In this document: positions 3,830 through 35,657 of the stretch, piece by piece
How positions within the stretch are numbered: the first letter of the stretch is position 1
How the letters are laid out: each line of letters starts with the position of its first letter
The notes under the pieces: model-generated
What the model was told of the DNA's origin: nothing
The model's input: the letters and a program-made list of their open reading frames with translations, nothing else
Database searches by the model: none
Translations under genes and position numbers: made by a program
DNA from: Nitrospirota bacterium
GTDB taxonomy: Bacteria; Nitrospirota; UBA9217
Assembly (NCBI GenBank): GCA_963737155.1
Contig: CAVTRN010000001.1
Span: 1,440,001 to 1,504,000, forward strand
Direction: 5' to 3'
DNA: 64,000 nt

Positions 3830-4459
3830 GTGGCACGGTATATTGGATCAGTTTGTAAGCTCTGCAGAAGGGAGGGCTTGAAGCTCTTTCTGAAGGCTGA
3901 GCGTTGTTATACGGATAAATGCGGTATCACTCGCAGGAGCTATCCTCCCGGCCAGCATGGCCAGGCGCGCATCAAACAATCTGAGTACAGCTTGCAGCTG
4001 AGAGAAAAGCAGAAAATCAGACGGGTGTATGGAGTACTTGAGCGTCAATTCCGCGGCTATTTTGAAAAGGCTGAACGGATGAAAGGCGTTACCGGAGAAA
4101 ATCTGCTGCAGCTCCTTGAACGGAGGATTGATAACGTTGTTCAGAGAATGGGCTTTTCCGGCTCTAAAAAAGAAGCTCGACAGCTCGTACGCCACGGCCA
4201 TATTCTGATCAACGGAAAAAAAGTTAATATTCCGTCTTATCTGTTAAAGGCGGGCGACGTGGTTGAGCTTCGTGAAAAAAGCAGGGGGATTGCGCAGATT
4301 CAACAGACCCTTGCAGCCGTGGAGAAGCGAGGCTTCCCTTCTTGGCTGGAAATCGACAAAGCGCAGTTCAGAGGAAAGGTTTTATCCTTACCGGTCAGGG
4401 ATGAAAGCACGATGCCGACCGTTAAGGAACAGCTTGTCGTCGAACTCTATTCGAAATAA
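3830..4459 (+). CDS. rpsD: 30S ribosomal protein S4
   Basis: [40 protein letters not shown]. Confidence 0.98.
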
Positions 4460-27244: not shown

Positions 27245-27745
27245 TTAATCCTTCGTATCTATCGATTTTCCTTCTGAGAGGTCTTCAATTTTTCTGGCTT
27301 CCGCAGCCTTGGTTAACAGTTCTCCACGACTTTGCATCGCCTTTTCTGCCGCATCAGGGTCCTTCTTGAGTTCATAACTCGCTACAAGTGCTTCGTAATA
27401 ATGGGCCTCCTCGGTATAACTTCGCGATCGACGCAGAACTCCTTCCTTGAGCTGCGACTCCTCCTTGATAATTCGCTGCAACACTGCAATGGCATCATCT
27501 GGCCTGTTTTCCGAATTATATGCCACGGCTAGCCGGTAATCGAGGAACCGCAGCTGGCTTTCAAGGATCGCGGCATATAAAGGGTCCTGCTTCGCTCGTG
27601 TATTGTCTTTCGAATGTGCGAGATCAGCTCTCTCTGCTGCTATGATGGCGCTTTCCGGCTTTGATGGTTCTTTTATCAAAAAGAGGACCAGAAAAACCGC
27701 AGCGACGAGGATAAAAAACGCGATTATTTTGATATGTGGTTTCAA
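27245..27745 (-). CDS. Membrane-anchored helical (TPR-like) hypothetical protein
   Basis: N-terminal TM helix; YRLAVAY..DDAIAVLQRII and HYYEALVASYE..AAEKA TPR-like pattern. Confidence 0.6.
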   Translation of the reverse strand: MKPHIKIIAFFILVAAVFLVLFLIKEPSKPESAIIAAERADLAHSKDNTRAKQDPLYAAILESQLRFLDYRLAVAYNSENRPDDAIAVLQRIIKEESQLKEGVLRRSRSYTEEAHYYEALVASYELKKDPDAAEKAMQSRGELLTKAAEARKIEDLSEGKSIDTKD

Positions 27746-28685
27746 GGGAAGACGTCCTTACGCTCGCCAGGGCGAACAGGATAGGAGTTTAAGATCAGGC
27801 TATATGATGAAAAAGATAATACAACATAAAGGAAAAGGCAAGGGAAAAGCAACATCCCGAAGGTTGCGGAGTTTTATATTTTATGATAATACTATCGAGG
27901 ATGATGGTCAGGTTGCGGAGAATTCGTTATTCATTAAAGGGGCTCCTCAGCAGAATCTGTGGATAAAAAATCAGCATTTAAGGAAAAGTCTCGCATTCCG
28001 GCATAACCATTATGCTAATTTATAGTTGCATTGACGTCACATTTGCCATTGCTGTCTTTATTCATCGTTGCTTACAACGCAGGTGATAAATCTCACTGTG
28101 ACATTTATTAGCCTATTCGCTAGTGATGAGATCTTGCAATCACGCGTAATTACAGAACAAATACGGAATCGTAATCTAAAAAATATCCACAGATTCAGCG
28201 GAGGAGGCATTAAAGGCATCTGGCCGTTTCAACCAGTACCTTGCGAAGGGTCCAGCTCATGCGAAGCACTCCTTGAATTTGCTTTCAGTCCATACGAACT
28301 CGTCCCTGATCAAGATTGATTTTATTTGATTATTTTTATTCTGGAAAAGCTGGATGTTGCCGATGTAGATTGCCTCATCGTCGGGTTTGACCTCAAGCCG
28401 TTAAAACTGTCAAGTTTGTCTTTCTTGAAATCCCTAAGTTGTCTCCCGCCATACAGGACAAAAATGTTTCTGAACTCCCACGACTTGTACGTTTTAAGCT
28501 TCCGATCCCCCTCCTGAAGCTACGGATGCAGTTTGATTCGGTCGAAATTTAACGCTTTGGCCGGCCACCACGTTCATGATGCTTGTCACTTGCTGCACCG
28601 AACCTCTGGAAAGGCCTGCGCCCGCTTCGAGCATATCATGCTGAATAAAGCTGATTAATTGTGTGCGCATCATTTGCAGCCCCGC

Positions 28686-29159
28686 CTATTCAACGATCGT
28701 CACCACCATGCCCGCCCCCTGTCCCGCGATCCTTCCTGCGACTGTGCCGAGTACATTCTTCGGTGAGTGATGGGATCTCCCTACGACGATGGCCCGGCAG
28801 TTGCTGTCCTTTGCCTCTTCGAGGATACTGTCGGCAACATCCGTCGAGTCGGACACAAATTTCGTCCGGATTCTTGCGGTCGGCATCCCCTTTGCGGTAA
28901 GCGTATTCACGGCCTTGCTAAACAGCGGTTCTATCTTGGCCTTCTGAGCGAGAAGCCATTTATCCACGACCTTAGATCGATCCTGCTTCTCATCATCGGA
29001 CAGGATATGTCCCTCATCCCAGAAAATCGCGGGAAGGTTCGGGAGCACATGCACGAGGCTGACTTCCAAATCGTCGTCAAGGCCGAATTGCTGTGCTACA
29101 TATTCAACCGCTTTCATGGCGCTCTGTGATTCATCCAATGCTATCAGCATCTTTGTCAT
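28686..29159 (-). CDS. Universal stress protein
   Basis: KMLIALDESQSAMKAVEY..LVHV..IVVGRS..LGTVAGRI. Confidence 0.9.
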   Translation of the reverse strand: MTKMLIALDESQSAMKAVEYVAQQFGLDDDLEVSLVHVLPNLPAIFWDEGHILSDDEKQDRSKVVDKWLLAQKAKIEPLFSKAVNTLTAKGMPTARIRTKFVSDSTDVADSILEEAKDSNCRAIVVGRSHHSPKNVLGTVAGRIAGQGAGMVVTIVE

Positions 29160-29306
29160 TTTTCTTCCTCCAGGGTACTTTTATTGTAGCGTCGGATCAG
29201 GGCCGATAGTCGCGGCTGTCGCCCGAAAACACCATATATAATGAGGATAATATATCCTGAGGGAAAAGGCAAGGGCGGTTCTGGAAAAAAAAGAAGGGGA
29301 AAACCG

Positions 29307-29657
29307 TTAATATGTGCCGTCACCCTGAATCGATCGCACGAACTGCTCCGCAAGCCGTCCGTTCCTGCCCCCAGCAGCAAGGGCCCACTGGATCGCGAGT
29401 CGCTCAAGCTTGTTCCCGTCCATGCGGACGCCATACTTCGTAGCGTAGGATGTGACTATCTCCAGGTAGGTATCCTCGGAAAAGTGGTAAAAGCCAAAGC
29501 GCAGGCCGAAACGATCCACAAGCGAGATCTTCTCCTCCACCGTATCGGAAGGCCGAATCTCGTCGCTGTCATTGTCCGAGAACCTCGTGGTGATCAGATG
29601 TTTCCGATTCGATGTTGCATAGAACAGTACGTTTGCCGGGATTTGTTCCAGACCGCC
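29307..29657 (-). pseudogene. DUF815-family AAA+ ATPase, 3' half only (interrupted by Tn7-like end)
   Basis: GGLE..PANVLFYATSNRKHL..EEKISLVDRFGLRFGFY..A.QW....GGRNGR.AEQF; homology stops at the TGT end. Confidence 0.85.
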
Positions 29658-29883
29658 TGTCACAAACAATAATAAAAGAGACTGATAGTAATTTTATATT
29701 TTAATTAACCTATTGTAAATATGAATTAAAATAATTAACCATATCCTTGCCAATACAAAAATAATACATTATATAATTAAACTATAACATAATATAACGA
29801 TACAACATTTAATATTAACAATATATATTGATAACAAGTTGCAGTAAGTTGACAATAATATTATTTTCATTTATAATTAAATC

Positions 29884-30558
29884 ATGCCAGCACGCAAAAT
29901 ACGCAGAAATTACAGGTCGGTAACTGGAATTTTCCCCAGCATATTCAAAAATGGTCGGGGTGTCGCTTACGAGTCCCCTTTGGAGAGGGATTTTTTTACT
30001 CTATTGGAGTTCGATGATAATGTGAAAACATATGAGGAGCAACCAGTGAAGATACTTCATAAGAAGGGTCGAAAAACGATACCCTATTACCCCGATTGTC
30101 TCATTACTTACATACCCGAAATAAAGCGAAAGGATCTTCTCCTGGATGTCAAGGATACGGACACTATTGAGAAAACTAAAGATGATTACGAATATAGGCG
30201 TGATGTCGTCGCGCGTTACGCAGAAGAACACGGACAAGATTATGCAGTTTTTACAGAGAAGGAAATCCGGACAGTGTACCTTAAAAACGTGAAGTTTCTC
30301 TATCGCTTCGCTCGTGCTCCACAGAATCTCAATGAAGTGCAAATGATGATCAAGGGCAGCGGGGTTGCTGGTGCGCTTCTTGCCGTAAACGAACTTCTTG
30401 CAAAGTTGACACCGGACAAGAAGCGACAAATGGAAATACTACCTTCAATTTGGCATCTTGTGTGTATCAAAAAGATATCTACGAACTTAGACGATAAAGA
30501 ACTAAATATGAAATCCATCCTGAATGTAACCAATGATACGCGACAACGGCAGAGATGA
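29884..30558 (+). CDS. tnsA: TnsA endonuclease
   Basis: RSVTG..YESPLERDF..LEFD..EEQP..YYPD..DVK..TEKEIR..YLKNVKFL. Confidence 0.92.
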   Translation: MPARKIRRNYRSVTGIFPSIFKNGRGVAYESPLERDFFTLLEFDDNVKTYEEQPVKILHKKGRKTIPYYPDCLITYIPEIKRKDLLLDVKDTDTIEKTKDDYEYRRDVVARYAEEHGQDYAVFTEKEIRTVYLKNVKFLYRFARAPQNLNEVQMMIKGSGVAGALLAVNELLAKLTPDKKRQMEILPSIWHLVCIKKISTNLDDKELNMKSILNVTNDTRQRQR

Positions 30559-30756
30559 CGAAAAAAAAGACAGTACATGGTAAGCGCTTCTCGGTGTGAC
30601 TGTTTGGTACTAATCGGCAGTAACAGATTAGCATATCCCGTTTTGACTGTGTTCGCCGATCCGTGGAGCAAATCGTCAGGATAGATATGGCTTACATCGA
30701 AAGGCGCTAAATGCTGCGGTTGATACTCAGTAGATAGTCGTTCCTGAGGTTATAAT

Positions 30757-32715
30757 ATGGGCTTAGTATCCTTCACACCTGGAAGTATAGTTTATTCGGG
30801 AAAAGACCGTTATGAGGTAGTGGCAACATCTGATCTCAAGAACGTTTTGGTCAAAAAATCGGACACAGGCGAGAATAAAATCCTACCCGTTGCTTCCTTG
30901 AGATCTACTCCCGAAGAGGATAGCCCAGCAGACAGCGGAATCAGTACTGTTGGGCACATCGATGACAAACTATGGGCATTAGCTCTTTGGCGTCAAGAAG
31001 TGATTAAACCTCTTTTGAAGAATGGACGCACCAAAAGTGAGGTTATCGCACGTGCGAAACATTTTGAAGTCAGTCCGGTAACTGTCTACCGATGGATTGC
31101 CGATTTTGAGACTACAGGCACTACCAGCGCCTTGGTTCCGAAATACGATCAGCGTGGAGGCAGCGGAAAAACCAGATTTAACAAAAATGGGGAAGAAATT
31201 ATCAGTGCAACCTTGACAAAACTTTACCTTAACAAACAACAGTTGAAACCCACGAAAGTATACGATGAAATAAAAAGACTTTTTTCTCTCGCCAAGCTTA
31301 CCCCACCTCACATGAATACGATGATTAACAGAATCAAAACGTTTTCTAACAGGGAAGTGGCGGCGGCCCGTAAAGGCAAAAAATGGAGTCAAGACCACTT
31401 TGAGGAAAAAACAGGGCATTATCCAGGAGGCAAGTATCCGCTTGATGTCATACAGATCGATCACACCATGCTTGATGTCCATATTGTTGATGAGAAGCAC
31501 CGCGAGGTATTAGACCGTCCATGGCTCACGGTCGCAATCGATGTATTCTCGAGGGTGATCGTTGGTTTCTATATATACCCGGACCATCCAAGCTATTTCT
31601 CTGTGTCCCAATGCCTCGCCAATGCGTTTCTACCAAAAGACAAGTTTTTAAGATCAGTCAATGTCGAGGGCAACTGGGATGTCTGGGGCCGACCTTTTTC
31701 GATCTTCGCCGATAACGCCTGGGAGTTTCAGGGGGTCAATCTTAAGAGAGTATGCGCTGAATACGATACAATTCTTGAATGGCGACCAGTGAAGCACCCG
31801 GAATACGGCGGACATATTGAGCGCCTTTGCGGTACGCTTAACAATGAGATACATAGCCTGCCAGGAACGACATTTTCTAACATCCAAGCTAAAGGACAGG
31901 CGTATAACTCAGAGAAAGAAGCTGTAATGACAATCGCCGAACTTGAACATTGGTTCACTGATCTCGTAGTAAACACTTATCACAAAAGACCTCATTCAGG
32001 AATCAACGATATGTCACCCATGGCGAAATACGAGATGGGGATTCGCGGGGACGATACTACGCCTGGAACCGGACTCCCGACTGCCTTTGAGGACGAAGAT
32101 CGACTGAGGATCAGCCTTTACCCGCATTATATGAGGTCTGTAAGACGGGATGGTATCGTAATAGAAAATGTGCACTACTATCATGACGTACTCAGGAAGT
32201 GGATTAATGCATCCAAGGGGAGTAGAAAGAGACTATTTGAAGTGAACTATAATCCCCGCGACATGAGCGTAGTTTACTTCTACGATCCGGAGCTTAAAAA
32301 GTATTTTCCAATACCTTACAGGAATATGACTCATAAACCGTTGACACTCTGGGATATCACTGCCGAGAAGAAGTATTTACACGAGCAGGGCATGAAAACC
32401 ATTGACGAGGCCAGCATCTTCAGATCATATGAACGCAGGATGCACATAGTCGAAAATTCGACGGAAAAAACGAAACAGGCGCGTAAAGAGTCTCGCAAAC
32501 GGACCGAAGTGCGGGAATTCCACAAACGTAAGCATAAGCAGGAAACGCAGCCGGCAGAGCATTCCAAAAACGGAAATAATGTATCGAATGTTGCCGACGC
32601 TGGACAAGACAAGAAGTCCATATTTACCGACCTGTTAAAAAATGCAAGGCCCTTTGAGGGAATAAAAGTGATACATAGGAAATCTGAAAGGGGTTCGGAT
32701 GGTGACGAAGGATGA
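30757..32715 (+). CDS. tnsB: TnsB/TniA DDE transposase
   Basis: QIDHT, RPWLTVAIDVFSR, DNAWEF, YGGHIERL..PGTTFSN, YNPRDMS. Confidence 0.93.
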   Translation: MGLVSFTPGSIVYSGKDRYEVVATSDLKNVLVKKSDTGENKILPVASLRSTPEEDSPADSGISTVGHIDDKLWALALWRQEVIKPLLKNGRTKSEVIARAKHFEVSPVTVYRWIADFETTGTTSALVPKYDQRGGSGKTRFNKNGEEIISATLTKLYLNKQQLKPTKVYDEIKRLFSLAKLTPPHMNTMINRIKTFSNREVAAARKGKKWSQDHFEEKTGHYPGGKYPLDVIQIDHTMLDVHIVDEKHREVLDRPWLTVAIDVFSRVIVGFYIYPDHPSYFSVSQCLANAFLPKDKFLRSVNVEGNWDVWGRPFSIFADNAWEFQGVNLKRVCAEYDTILEWRPVKHPEYGGHIERLCGTLNNEIHSLPGTTFSNIQAKGQAYNSEKEAVMTIAELEHWFTDLVVNTYHKRPHSGINDMSPMAKYEMGIRGDDTTPGTGLPTAFEDEDRLRISLYPHYMRSVRRDGIVIENVHYYHDVLRKWINASKGSRKRLFEVNYNPRDMSVVYFYDPELKKYFPIPYRNMTHKPLTLWDITAEKKYLHEQGMKTIDEASIFRSYERRMHIVENSTEKTKQARKESRKRTEVREFHKRKHKQETQPAEHSKNGNNVSNVADAGQDKKSIFTDLLKNARPFEGIKVIHRKSERGSDGDEG

Positions 32716-33607
32716 TGTACATGCGGAAAGCCTCATTCCAGATGCACGGGCAGTGCTCGACTTGGACGATAAGGCCAGAGTGGATTATATCCGGCAGGAG
32801 AAGTGGATCCCGTATACTCGGGCAAACGAGATATTAGCCAGCCTTGAGGAACTTCTGATCACACCGAAGAAGTCACGGATGCCAAGTATGCTCATTGTTG
32901 GCGACTCAAACAATGGCAAATCCAGTATTGCACAAGAGTTCCTCCGTCGCCACCCACCTACTAATGGCATTGAGTCCGAAGCGTATCCCGTTATTTGGAT
33001 AGAAGCCCCGAATACCCCGGACGAGGGTAGGTTGTATAACAATATTCTGAAGCATCTTCTAGTGCCGTTCAAGTACAAGGACATGCCCTCGAAAAAAGAG
33101 CATGAGGTTGATTATTATTTCCAGAAACTTGGCACCAAAATGCTCATCATAGACGATATCCACAACATCTTGAGCGGACCCATAACGAAACAGCTAATAT
33201 TTATGAATGCTTTAAGAACTCTAAATAACAGTTTGTATATTCCTATCGTACTCTTGGGAATAGAAACAGCCTTACAAGCTGTTGCTACAGACAAACAGAC
33301 AAGCAGTAGGTTTCCACCTGTTGCGCTGCCTAAGTGGAAGCCTAATCAAGAGTATGTGTCGCTATTGCTTAGTATTGAAATGATTCTGCCTTTGAGAAAA
33401 GCATCCAATCTGGCTTCTGAAGAACTGGCTCCTTTAATCCTAGATCTTTCCGAAGGGTATATCGGGGATATTGTCGAATTGATGAATACCGCCGCTATCT
33501 ATGCCGTCCAGGCCGGGATTGAGCGGATCACCTCCAAAGTGATTTCTGCATGCGGTTACATCAAACCTTCACAACGAAGCCTCAAGGTAGGGCTGGAGAT
33601 AGTATGA
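32699..33607 (+). CDS. tnsC: TnsC/TniB AAA+ ATPase
   Basis: WIPY.RA, RMPSMLIVGDSNNGKS Walker A, MLIIDDIHN Walker B, SRF..LPKW, SEGYIG. Confidence 0.92.
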   Translation: MVTKDDVHAESLIPDARAVLDLDDKARVDYIRQEKWIPYTRANEILASLEELLITPKKSRMPSMLIVGDSNNGKSSIAQEFLRRHPPTNGIESEAYPVIWIEAPNTPDEGRLYNNILKHLLVPFKYKDMPSKKEHEVDYYFQKLGTKMLIIDDIHNILSGPITKQLIFMNALRTLNNSLYIPIVLLGIETALQAVATDKQTSSRFPPVALPKWKPNQEYVSLLLSIEMILPLRKASNLASEELAPLILDLSEGYIGDIVELMNTAAIYAVQAGIERITSKVISACGYIKPSQRSLKVGLEIV

Positions 33608-34796
33608 TGGGGTAGCAAACTTATATAGCGCCCAACTAAAGAAACGCCAGTTTGCGGTCAGGCTTAGACCAGAGAATAGTGAACTTCTCTCATCTTGGTT
33701 GGCAAGGACCATTTATGGCCATATGGTCGATTCCGCGACCTTTTTTAGCCTCTACTTTCCAGAGCGACAAAATATTATCTGGAAACGGGATATAGACCTA
33801 ACAGCCGATGATGAATTTTTGGAGATATTGTCTTATAAGAGCGGTCTGCGTTTCGGAGACCTCCTAGATCTTACGTTGAGATCATATGAGTCATATCTTG
33901 CGGAAAAGATATCCACTGTAGCAGCAAACCATTTTATTCAACCTTTGGGGAATTTTGGTCGAATGACAACAATGTACGGGCTGAGATTCTGTCCTATATG
34001 TCTGAAGGAAGATAAAATTCCTTTTTTTAGAAAAACATGGAGACTTTCTTTTTCAACGGCCTGTATTAAACACGGATGTTTCTTGCTGGACAGATGCCAG
34101 AAGTGCAATTACTCGATTTCCATTTTTAGGCGATTTTATGATCATGGCTTTCCTCATTGCTATAAATGCGGGGCGGAATATAAAAACGCAACGCCGGAAT
34201 TAATCACCGCCGACTCGCATGGGCTCCAACCTATCAAACAATTATATAACATACTGGATTCTGGCGTGTTTAGATTTTCCAACCGTTATACTTACTCCTT
34301 TTTATTCTTTGAGATGTTGTACAAGGTTATCAAACTCGTATGTTTCTGGAAAAAGGATAAGGCGTTCTTTGGTCAGCAAGATGATGTGTTATACAGAAAA
34401 CTTATGTTCAACGAGCCCATTCACAGATATCTGACAGATTACCCATTAAAGGTCCAACACCTTCTTTTTTCCAACGCAATGGATCTTTTTAACGGCCTGC
34501 CGGATAAACTTGTCGGGTTTTTAACTGCCAATAATATGAGAATGTCCGATCTAGTACATGACCTCAAATATGTTCCTTTTTGGTTTGCCGAAATTGCGGA
34601 ACAGTTCAATCTCGATCAGAGAGCTGTGACTATAGACGAGGTTCGTAATGCTATAACATACTTAAAAAAGAGGAATAAACTCGTTTATCGGCAATCTGTC
34701 GCGGATCTCATGGGGGTTTTCAATTTTAATCCCAAAAAGCGACGGGATATTAGTAAGCTGTTTAATAAAGTCGGGCGTTTTTATTTAGCTGCTTGA
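33604..34796 (+). CDS. tniQ: TniQ/TnsD-family target selector (start region possibly frameshifted)
   Basis: RPENSELLSSWLAR, FCPICL..RKTWRLSF.TACIKH..LLDRCQKC..CYKCG; frame open from 33603 but ATGs at 33604/33607 are out of frame; track start is TTG 33699. Confidence 0.88.
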
Positions 34797-34819
34797 TGAG
34801 GCTAACACATGCAATGATA

Positions 34820-35050
34820 TGCTATACGATTATGCTCCAACCGAGACTATCCCACTGTTGGATGCCCTATATACTTCAGAGTTGGGACTATTCTTAAACT
34901 TCTGTATGACTGCCCGTACCAGACCATGGAAGGACTCCACATAGTCATCGCGGATGTCATTGAACGATGCAACAAGTACTGACTTGTGGAAAAACATGGC
35001 TTCAGAAGCCTGCGGCAGGCATACGATCAGCTTCAGCTTAAAGTAGCCAC
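34820..35050 (+). pseudogene. Possible integrase/transposase fragment
   Basis: RYDYAPTETIPLLDALYTSELGLFLNF resembles the C-terminal part of rve-type transposases; broken frame. Confidence 0.35.
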
Positions 35051-35273
35051 GTAAGTACTATATTGTGTCCAAGGTACCAGGTGCGCTACACTTTAGTTCC
35101 GTTAGTTCCTTATTTCCAATAAATTAAAAGTGTGATATATTTCTACTGTATCTTCAAACCCCGTCTTACATTATCTGAGTCGATCGAATTCCATTAACAC
35201 CAGACTTCAGAATTATCGGGAGCGGTTCAATTCCTATAACAATGTTATGTGGCAACATAAATCGGAGTCAGAT

Positions 35274-35657
35274 ATGCCTACCTCTGAAATAATTAGAGCC
35301 TTTTTGTCTCATGCATCATCAACGAGTTCACGTTCAACAGCTCTTCAACCGCTTAGTTGGCTCACTGGAATATTGATATCAGGCTTAGTTATTGCACCCA
35401 AATGGAAGGCACCCAATTGGGTGCTTATTTTAATAGCGATTATGTTAGGTCTGACAGTAGCCCTTTTTTTGGCTAGCTACGGGTATTACGCATTAAAAAA
35501 ACCAGATGCCCTGCGTTCCGAGCGTTTTACATTATCCAAAATGGCTATTGAAAAGAATCTAATCGGAGATAATACTACTGGATTAACAGAAGTCGCAGAT
35601 TTTGGCGAAACAACGTCATTAAAAGTCCTTCCTGATAAACAGGGTGCTAAAGAATGA
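35274..35657 (+). CDS. Small 2-TM membrane hypothetical protein
   Basis: RSTALQPLSW..2 TM..PDALRSERF; RBS ggag upstream. Confidence 0.65.
   Translation: MPTSEIIRAFLSHASSTSSRSTALQPLSWLTGILISGLVIAPKWKAPNWVLILIAIMLGLTVALFLASYGYYALKKPDALRSERFTLSKMAIEKNLIGDNTTGLTEVADFGETTSLKVLPDKQGAKE

Follow-up and report, generated by a model that had tools for sequence, protein, structure and literature searches.

Tn7 combines a heteromeric TnsA/TnsB with an AAA+ TnsC and a TniQ-domain target selector; it is bounded by TGT...ACA ends, makes a 5-bp duplication and encodes a TnsE-type protein. Its selector, TnsD, is about 500 amino acids (aa) long and has a DNA-binding domain of its own, its TnsC is long, and the conserved coding motif at its target lies about +25 to +60 from the insertion, on the tns-proximal side. 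Tn7 spares glmS, inserting downstream of the gene. Here, we describe a Tn7-like transposon that shares with Tn7 this set of proteins (probably including one of TnsE type), ends and duplication, as well as the spacing of a putative target motif, and that is inserted in a gene coding for an AAA+ ATPase of the DUF815 family in a Nitrospirota bacterium. One end of the element lies in a 64,000-nucleotide stretch of the genome (assembly GCA_963737155.1, contig CAVTRN010000001.1, positions 1,440,001 to 1,504,000), which we call the window; positions 1 to 64,000 refer to this whole stretch, and parts of the element past 64,000 are given in genome coordinates (C1). G000 is the source genome, and the prefixes G, L, P and X denote other genomes, loci, proteins and public sequencing runs, respectively. 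Unlike Tn7, the element destroys its target gene, its TniQ and TnsC are both short, and its tnsE-like gene is not contiguous with the other tns genes.

The element also resembles the Tn6022/AbaR-type transposons, with which it shares tnsA, tnsB, a short TniB-type tnsC (302 aa here), a short TniQ (about 369 aa in Tn6022 according to PMC10293859 and PMC11014353, and 357-397 aa here), a 5-bp duplication and, probably, a TnsE-type protein. In both cases the coding sequence of an AAA+ ATPase is inactivated, with the 3′ half of the gene antisense beside tnsA, and relatives of the TniQ found here target comM. In contrast to Tn6022, which enters comM just upstream of the Walker B codons, the present element lies between the Walker B and sensor-1 codons of DUF815, in a host that has no comM. 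There is no match to TnsF (orf3/tniE), which in Tn6022 is in an operon with tniQ, and the tnsE-like gene is at the opposite end of the element, antisense and outside the tns operon. The element thus shows neither of the two features that define Tn6022, comM and TnsF. A third system, the heimdallarchaeal Tn7-like element KTGheim3B, also disrupts a protein-coding attachment (att) gene and bears an intact homolog of it (bioRxiv 10.1101/2025.07.27.667033). Its target is a DNA methylase gene and its spare copy is 75% identical, whereas here the target is DUF815 and the spare copy is about 42% identical; KTGheim3B has a fused tnsAB and a length of 13.9 kb, against 97 kb here. The spare DUF815 gene is also surrounded by defence genes, 15 kb away from the distal end, and on both counts its role as a replacement is less certain.

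We conclude, with a probability of roughly 0.75, that this is a site-specific, Tn6022-related Tn7-like transposon at a fixed position of DUF815, which would represent a new attachment site. The 3′ half of the host gene, from the codons for GGLEQIPANVLFYATSNRKHL... to the stop, occupies 29307-29657 (minus strand). The open reading frame (ORF) that contains it (29307-29669, minus strand), which carries GGLEQIPANVLFYATSNRKHL and whose translation reads ...LLFVTGGLEQIPANVLFYATSNRKHL, matched positions 132-247 of the 249 in the DUF815 profile (Pfam PF05673, E 1.7e-41). The original prediction had DUF815 homology ending at a TGT terminus at 29658, and this is where the boundary falls: the host half stops at 29657 and the element opens at 29658, where the flank ...ccagaccgcc is followed by 5′-TGTCACAAAC. 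The tns-proximal end of the element (29658-29883, plus strand) is an AT-rich stretch of 226 bp. As had been foreseen, a terminus ending in ACA, followed by ccgcc and the 5′ half of DUF815, was located past the window, 97,143 bp from the near end. The distal end (C1:1566573-1566800) closes with ...GCTATGACA at C1:1566800 (window position 126800 by extrapolation), and is followed by ccgcc and gtccatgatcg. The transposon therefore spans C1:1469658-1566800. The 5′ half of the host gene lies at C1:1566801-1567294 (minus strand) and matched profile positions 3-138 (match C1:1566791-1567198).

The two copies of the predicted duplication are found at 29653-29657 and at C1:1566801-1566805, and the termini read ccgcc-TGTCAC... 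and ...ATGACA-ccgcc, that is, TGT...ACA ends with a 5-bp duplication. When the two flanks were joined by a script with a single CCGCC, an unbroken DUF815 frame of 279 aa was obtained, which covers the full length of the family profile (3-138 plus 131-247). The first 165 residues of the restored protein are 59-86% identical to 13 orthologs of the family; the copy in G010, with 38% identity to the restored frame, is a more distant homolog. A PF05673 search of the source genome, which is 100% complete, gave three places, the 3′ half, the 5′ half and one intact copy. Neither 22-base terminus has a second occurrence in the 4.84-Mb genome when up to four mismatches are allowed, and the G+C content of the element is 43.8%, as compared to 49.4% for the genome.

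Contigs from four public sequencing runs were aligned to window positions 27500-35500; the shares covered were small (0.06-0.14), and stretches left uncovered carry no meaning. A contig of 796 nucleotides from run X1, about 95% identical, spans 29083-29657; over these 575 nucleotides it differs at 21 letters and has 7 gaps. Past 29657 it continues with 216 letters starting GTCCATGATCGTTTTCATTTCC, which is the sequence found in G000 past the far CCGCC. A close relative thus has an intact DUF815 gene with one CCGCC, that is, an empty site. The alignment of a second contig (X3; 1,446 nucleotides, about 94% identical) begins exactly at 29658, confirming the position of the terminus. Contigs from X5 were 99-100% identical to the window; they may derive from the source sample, and were not counted as independent.

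The truncated host gene reads through the distal end of the element, and thus codes for a junction protein made of the 5′ half of DUF815 and a 78-aa tail encoded by the transposon. We searched for this tail by a word search of 5.8 billion proteins and with HMMER in 1.84 billion representatives, and again by a word search of the 5.8 billion, this time with a profile built from three tails and directed at longer proteins. Exactly three junction proteins were found, P0029, P0033 and P0030, excluding one HMMER match of 3,161 aa with 13 short stretches. P0029 is the junction protein of the source genome itself. P0033, a protein of 241 aa, consists of the 5′ half of DUF815 up to ...MKTIMDGG followed by VISNSYCNY..., so that the break is at the same DUF815 codon as in the source genome. 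Its tail is 59-62% identical to that of the source element, and its host part of 165 aa shares 97.6% identity with the intact DUF815 of G036, 92% with that of G028 and 86% with that of G000. We read P0033 and the source element as two independent insertions of diverged elements at one position, because a single inherited event would give equal divergence of flank and element and would also need precise restorations of the gene. The proposal that DUF815 is an attachment site is thus strengthened by a second, diverged element that occupies this codon in another host. As for the wider expectation that the ends of related elements would recur at this codon, P0033 agrees with it; P0030 is beside nhaA, and the more distant relatives with a known site are in comM, a YgaP-like gene or a methyltransferase gene.

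Partial DUF815 matches in three genomes were inspected and rejected as insertions at the site; G061 gave a further partial match (profile 2-82). In G026 the match ends at a contig break, with a 16-nucleotide overlap, 17 bp from the site; in G025 it is at a contig start; and in G007 the truncated gene has an IS605-type tnpB next to it, a few codons from the site. A scan of metagenomes for relatives of the TniQ, performed once, returned L040 and a distant fragment, L041. L040 shows 90% nucleotide identity from tnsB to tniQ; its contig starts inside tnsB and is without the left end, and no DUF815 was found within its 13.4 kb. A literature search gave no paper joining DUF815 with Tn7, supplementary tables being outside its coverage. 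The papers found that mention DUF815 do not deal with attachment sites in the portions available, and a search for COG2607 and transposon returned nothing related.

Four genes read inward from the terminus in the predicted order, and their Pfam domains match. They are tnsA (29884-30558; Tn7_TnsA-like_N and Tn7_Tnp_TnsA_C), tnsB (30757-32715; Mu-transpos_C and HTH_28), tnsC (32699-33607; TniB, E 4.5e-68) and tniQ (33604-34796; TniQ, E 7.2e-19), all on the plus strand. Residues 81-424 of TnsB gave an IS481-type match, and tnsB is 90% identical to the copy in L040. The element therefore has TnsA and a TnsB DDE transposase, TnsC and a TniQ-domain protein, as expected of the Tn7-like group.

The conserved frame of tniQ opens at 33603 and lacks ATG, GTG or TTG until a TTG at 33699, which is inside the conserved ELLSSWL motif. 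A run of GGGG is preceded by a Shine-Dalgarno sequence (GGAG) and an ATG (33604/33607), which are shifted by one base relative to the tniQ frame. The layout of the tniQ start in L040 is the same as in the window, and P0003 is likewise called from an internal Met. Over the 35 upstream codons, the window and L040 differ by 8 synonymous-only and 4 amino acid changes, as compared to 45 and 32, respectively, over the next 232 codons. The upstream codons look constrained and the other two frames of the 5′ region are closed, from which we conclude that the region is translated. A TniQ of about 397 aa could result from a −1 slip on G-GGG or from a single additional G, and the arrangement could reflect either recoding or decay. 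The size of about 400 aa given in the original prediction stands if the frame is measured from stop to stop (397 aa), but from the first canonical start the protein has 365 aa, as an in-frame start is missing upstream. More distant TniQ homologs have 385-411 aa. Independently of its start, tniQ is interrupted by a 2.6-kb insertion in L040 (L040:3362-6004), and a contig of 5,346 nucleotides from X3 has a tniQ break like that of L040, at window position 34416.

The part of the DUF815 target that we put forward for recognition is the TTYTAYGCNACNTCNAAYCG block. All 15 aligned orthologs of the family keep DYKEMKTIMDGGLE(Q/E)IPxNVLFYATSNRKHL, i.e. DYKEMKTIMDGGLE.IP.NVLFYATSNRKHL. The codons for YATSNRKHL, in the sensor-1 region, occupy 29595-29621 (minus strand), 37-63 bp from the terminus; the 36 bases between them and the junction agree with the spacing originally proposed. 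As judged from its conservation and position, the LFYATSNRKHL block is likely to be the recognition region; it lies on the tns-proximal side, at a distance of 25-63 bp from the point of insertion.

What the relatives target was examined by a Pfam scan of their flanks, which covered 55 of 101 candidate upstream ORFs, namely the longer ones and those closest to the junction; in L010 there was no ORF to submit. The 3′ half of comM, antisense to tnsA and with the match to the Mg_chelatase profile starting at positions 83-94, adjoins 11 of the 22 loci that hold tnsA (L015-L019, L027, L032 and L036-L039, of which L018 and L019 are near-identical). A short comM remnant is retained in L009. In L008 (TniQ 48% identical) the element interrupts a gene for a YgaP-like membrane protein (L008:5940-6149), and in G343 (TniQ 45%) a class-I methyltransferase gene (locus L070; G343:C5, reverse strand, about 3980-4351), so that the target appears to change quickly within the TniQ clade of these two. 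The TniQs of the comM-flanked relatives are 27-43% identical to that of the source element, and the closest relatives are P0003 (78%) and P0005 (66%). Since TniQ relatives at or below 49% identity use other sites, the specificity for DUF815 would belong to a narrow subclade. The distal end of L017 was not found within its locus.

In a TniQ tree, rooted at the midpoint only, G000, P0003 and P0005 form a clade with 100/100 support. This clade is nested in a group of 25 rows (100/99) that also holds the comM-targeting L015, L016, L017 and L019. Outside the group, all five rows with a known site are comM-targeters, and L029 and L033 are there without a known site. No match to comM (PF01078) was found in G000; the gene is also missing in G028, G029, G036 and G037, and is present in 51 of the 64 genomes of the family. 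The simplest reading of these patterns is that comM would be the older target, and DUF815, YgaP and the methyltransferase gene later switches. A DNA motif shared by comM and DUF815 was considered and dropped: in both, ...VLF... comes after the Gly-Gly insertion point, and the spacing differs by about 6-7 codons. comM was also seen in pieces in five genomes of the same family as the source (G032, G020, G039, G035 and G010). It is broken near Mg_chelatase profile positions 152-158 in four of them and at 93 in G010, which suggests other mobile elements at two recurrent positions of comM.

A gene for a protein of 574 aa lies at the far end of the element and reads inward (C1:1564848-1566572, or L007:11848-13572; minus strand). 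It was identified through homologs in the family and by a structure search, and we assign it with moderate confidence as TnsE-like. Homologs with 21-29% identity are found in L017, L019, L020, L022, L025 and L031, all antisense to the tns operon. Pfam TnsE_C (PF18623) matches four of the six aligned members, that of L019 with 28.9 bits against a cut-off of 26.7. The source sequence itself gave no Pfam match up to E 1, nor any match in Pfam at 1e-4, NCBIfam, PADLOC or the ESM Atlas, and a profile search of the sequences in the PDB returned one chance-level row only. In its AlphaFold model the predicted local distance difference test score (pLDDT) is 49 overall and 62-86 over the last 100 residues. 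With this low-confidence model as a query, a VIA search of 48,161 chains, independent of Foldseek, placed the C-terminal domain of TnsE (5d16_A) first (Z 9.9, root-mean-square deviation 3.8, 137 residues aligned), the next Z being 7.4. The earlier statement that there is no tnsE nearby is thus correct for the window, but not for the element, which has a tnsE-like gene 95 kb off at its opposite end.

A number of observations weigh against site-specific insertion in DUF815. Insertion at one site and in one orientation is documented by two cases (n=2), of which the second is represented solely by a protein encoded on a 2,984-bp contig. The tail of P0030, a 155-aa protein encoded on a 7,782-bp contig, is closer to that of the source element, at 78-79% identity, than the tail of P0033, yet it is fused to the NhaA antiporter, whose C-terminus ...KLLKIKK is followed by VIITNSYCNY.... 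The residue preceding this tail is a K, and a codon for K cannot end in the T of an in-frame TGT terminus, so that the junction may be eroded or different. Among 401 sampled genomes of the phylum, 106 of them with DUF815, no split DUF815 at this site was found besides that of G000. Nor was DUF815 found near tnsA in any of 32 TniQ-related loci from 185,579 species genomes. In the left-end contig from X3, whose alignment begins at 29658, the 55 further letters are unaligned at a likeness of at least 80%, and this flank may or may not be DUF815. The repeats expected as TnsB sites are weak, of the ACA(A/C)AA(A/T)ATA type in AT-rich ends, and barely exceed shuffled controls, with 65 pairs observed as compared to at most 54 in 20 shuffles. 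The first 32 or so conserved codons of tniQ have no canonical in-frame start, so that recoding may be needed or the gene may be defective. Lastly, a short TniQ may not suffice, as the TniQ of Tn6022, of similar size, does not bind the target alone.

Could the shared codon have been inherited? If one ancestral insertion had passed vertically to G000 and to the host of P0033, the codon would say nothing about targeting, and the original hit might have been random. By DUF815 similarity both hosts are in one genus, and just two cases are known. But co-inherited neutral DNA should not differ as it does between flank and element: the host half of P0033 is nearly the same as the intact gene of G036 and much further from that of G000, and the tails have diverged further still. 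Intact genes are present in G036, G028 and eight further members of the genus, and the empty site is present in a relative about 95% identical, so that precise restoration of the gene would have been required repeatedly. We consider inheritance from one event very improbable. A chance landing in DUF815, untargeted or of TnsE type and with no fixed attachment site, would accord with the presence of a tnsE-like gene, with the related end beside nhaA and with a tniQ that has no in-frame start codon. Two diverged elements, however, break DUF815 at one codon and in the same orientation, a coincidence that has a negligible chance in genomes of 3-5 Mb, and the geometry is that of the comM-targeting relatives (tnsA adjoined by the antisense 3′ half of a gene for an AAA+ protein). 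We give a random landing hardly any credence. For P0030, the TnsE-like protein could, as a second pathway, explain insertions at non-att sites.

Which protein reads the site is a separate question, and a specific site could be read by another protein of the element, either a TnsF-like selector or a DNA-binding protein of the cargo, with the short TniQ as an adaptor. In Tn6022, TnsABC and the 369-aa TniQ are insufficient, and it is TnsF that binds comM, at its Walker B codons (PMC10293859 and PMC11014353). The TniQ of the present element is likewise short, and its best fold matches include adaptor TniQs of CRISPR-associated transposons: its model has a pLDDT of 82, and the best Foldseek rows are the TniQ of a type I-B CRISPR-associated transposon and TnsD, with E values of only about 1e-2. 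Against a separate selector, a tblastn search with the TnsF-like proteins of L038 and L039, the only loci in which such proteins were seen, gave no match in the element, although a very remote homolog could escape it, and none in the other comM-targeting relatives. The two ORFs that follow tniQ (136 and 96 aa) have no family matches, and the similarity to L040, 90% identical up to there, stops at 34814, 18 bp past the tniQ stop, beyond which the two have nothing in common. Of the proteins tested, besides TnsABC and TniQ, only the TnsE-like one had homologs in related loci. In addition, targeting by the archaeal KTGheim3B was reconstituted with just TnsAB, TnsC, TniQ and an att fragment, as reported in bioRxiv 10.1101/2025.07.27.667033. 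A selector other than TniQ thus seems unlikely. Because there is no TnsF-like match and nothing is shared with L040 beyond those 18 bp, TniQ is the best candidate for, and the predicted, target selector.

Under site-specific insertion at DUF815, the element would have entered by cut-and-paste transposition at a fixed position of the gene, duplicating CCGCC. The target selector, most likely TniQ itself, would bind the LFYATSNRKHL codons (25-63 bp away, on the tns-proximal side), after which TnsC would position TnsAB at a set distance, by analogy with the action of TnsD in Tn7 insertion at glmS. The lineage would descend from comM-targeting elements, with the switch of target taking place in hosts without comM. 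The TnsE-like protein would probably provide a second, non-att pathway, and the DUF815 copy in the cargo may replace the destroyed gene.

The cargo, about 90 kb between the ends, consists chiefly of defence genes, Rhs genes and insertion sequences; it begins in the window (34797-64000) and continues to C1:1566800. Pfam matched HNH and Mrr-type nucleases and a RelA/SpoT-TPR protein, all in the window, as well as two Rhs proteins, an E1/E2/ubiquitin-like set, a NACHT protein and HepT. PADLOC matched a type IIG/I methylase, also in the window, PD-T4-3 (E 2e-103) and a dCTP-deaminase-type protein. Two-component genes and an IS4-type transposase complete the part in the window; the insertion sequences of the whole cargo are this one of IS4 type, two identical of IS256 type and two of ISL3 type. 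A gene for a TonB-dependent receptor is interrupted by a transposase gene of IS256 type, from the Mutator family (L004:2756-6165; C1:1504756-1508165), and an identical transposase ORF of 422 aa is found at L007:8162-9430. A run of defence-type genes at L006:6748-13193 (C1:1542748-1549193) comprises PD-T4-3, the dCTP-deaminase-type gene and a multiubiquitin/E2/E1/DUF6527 set adjoining a CapP-like/HTH pair.

The spare DUF815 gene lies at C1:1551492-1552286 (L006:15492-16286; minus strand), with a PF05673 match at C1:1551504-1552241 (E 9.6e-100), and has two deaminase-domain genes and small unknown ORFs as neighbours. It is 40-44% identical to the halves of the host gene, and the genome has no other intact copy. 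Where the host gene was entered, the spare copy has LKTVLEGS-IEQPPNNVLLYATSNRRHL, and its recognition block differs at many wobble positions. No such copy was found in the 7 kb after tniQ in L040. It seems possible that the spare gene compensates for the loss of the host gene; the heimdallarchaeal element also carries a copy of the methylase gene that it disrupts (bioRxiv 10.1101/2025.07.27.667033).

These threads can be drawn into one account, which we offer as a speculation and hold to be doubtful as a whole. A subclade associated with Nitrospirota would have re-aimed a short TniQ, without TnsF, from comM to DUF815 in hosts that had lost comM. The diverged spare DUF815, itself immune as a target, would replace the destroyed gene and make the host dependent on the island, and tniQ would be throttled by a −1 slip or an extra G at the conserved ATG-GGGG two codons in.

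Attachment sites decide where Tn7-like islands accumulate and which hosts they enter. DUF815 is a widely distributed, uncharacterised AAA+ gene, also present in the control genomes of cyanobacteria, Thermus, Caulobacter and archaea, and would add a landing pad for such islands. The element described here would show how a lineage that targets comM switches to another gene when comM is missing. Its compact set of TnsABC and a short TniQ, with no TnsF or CRISPR, makes it a test case for whether a short TniQ can read DNA alone. The spare DUF815 may be an addiction or compensation device, and the tniQ gene without a start may exemplify the control of transposition by recoding.

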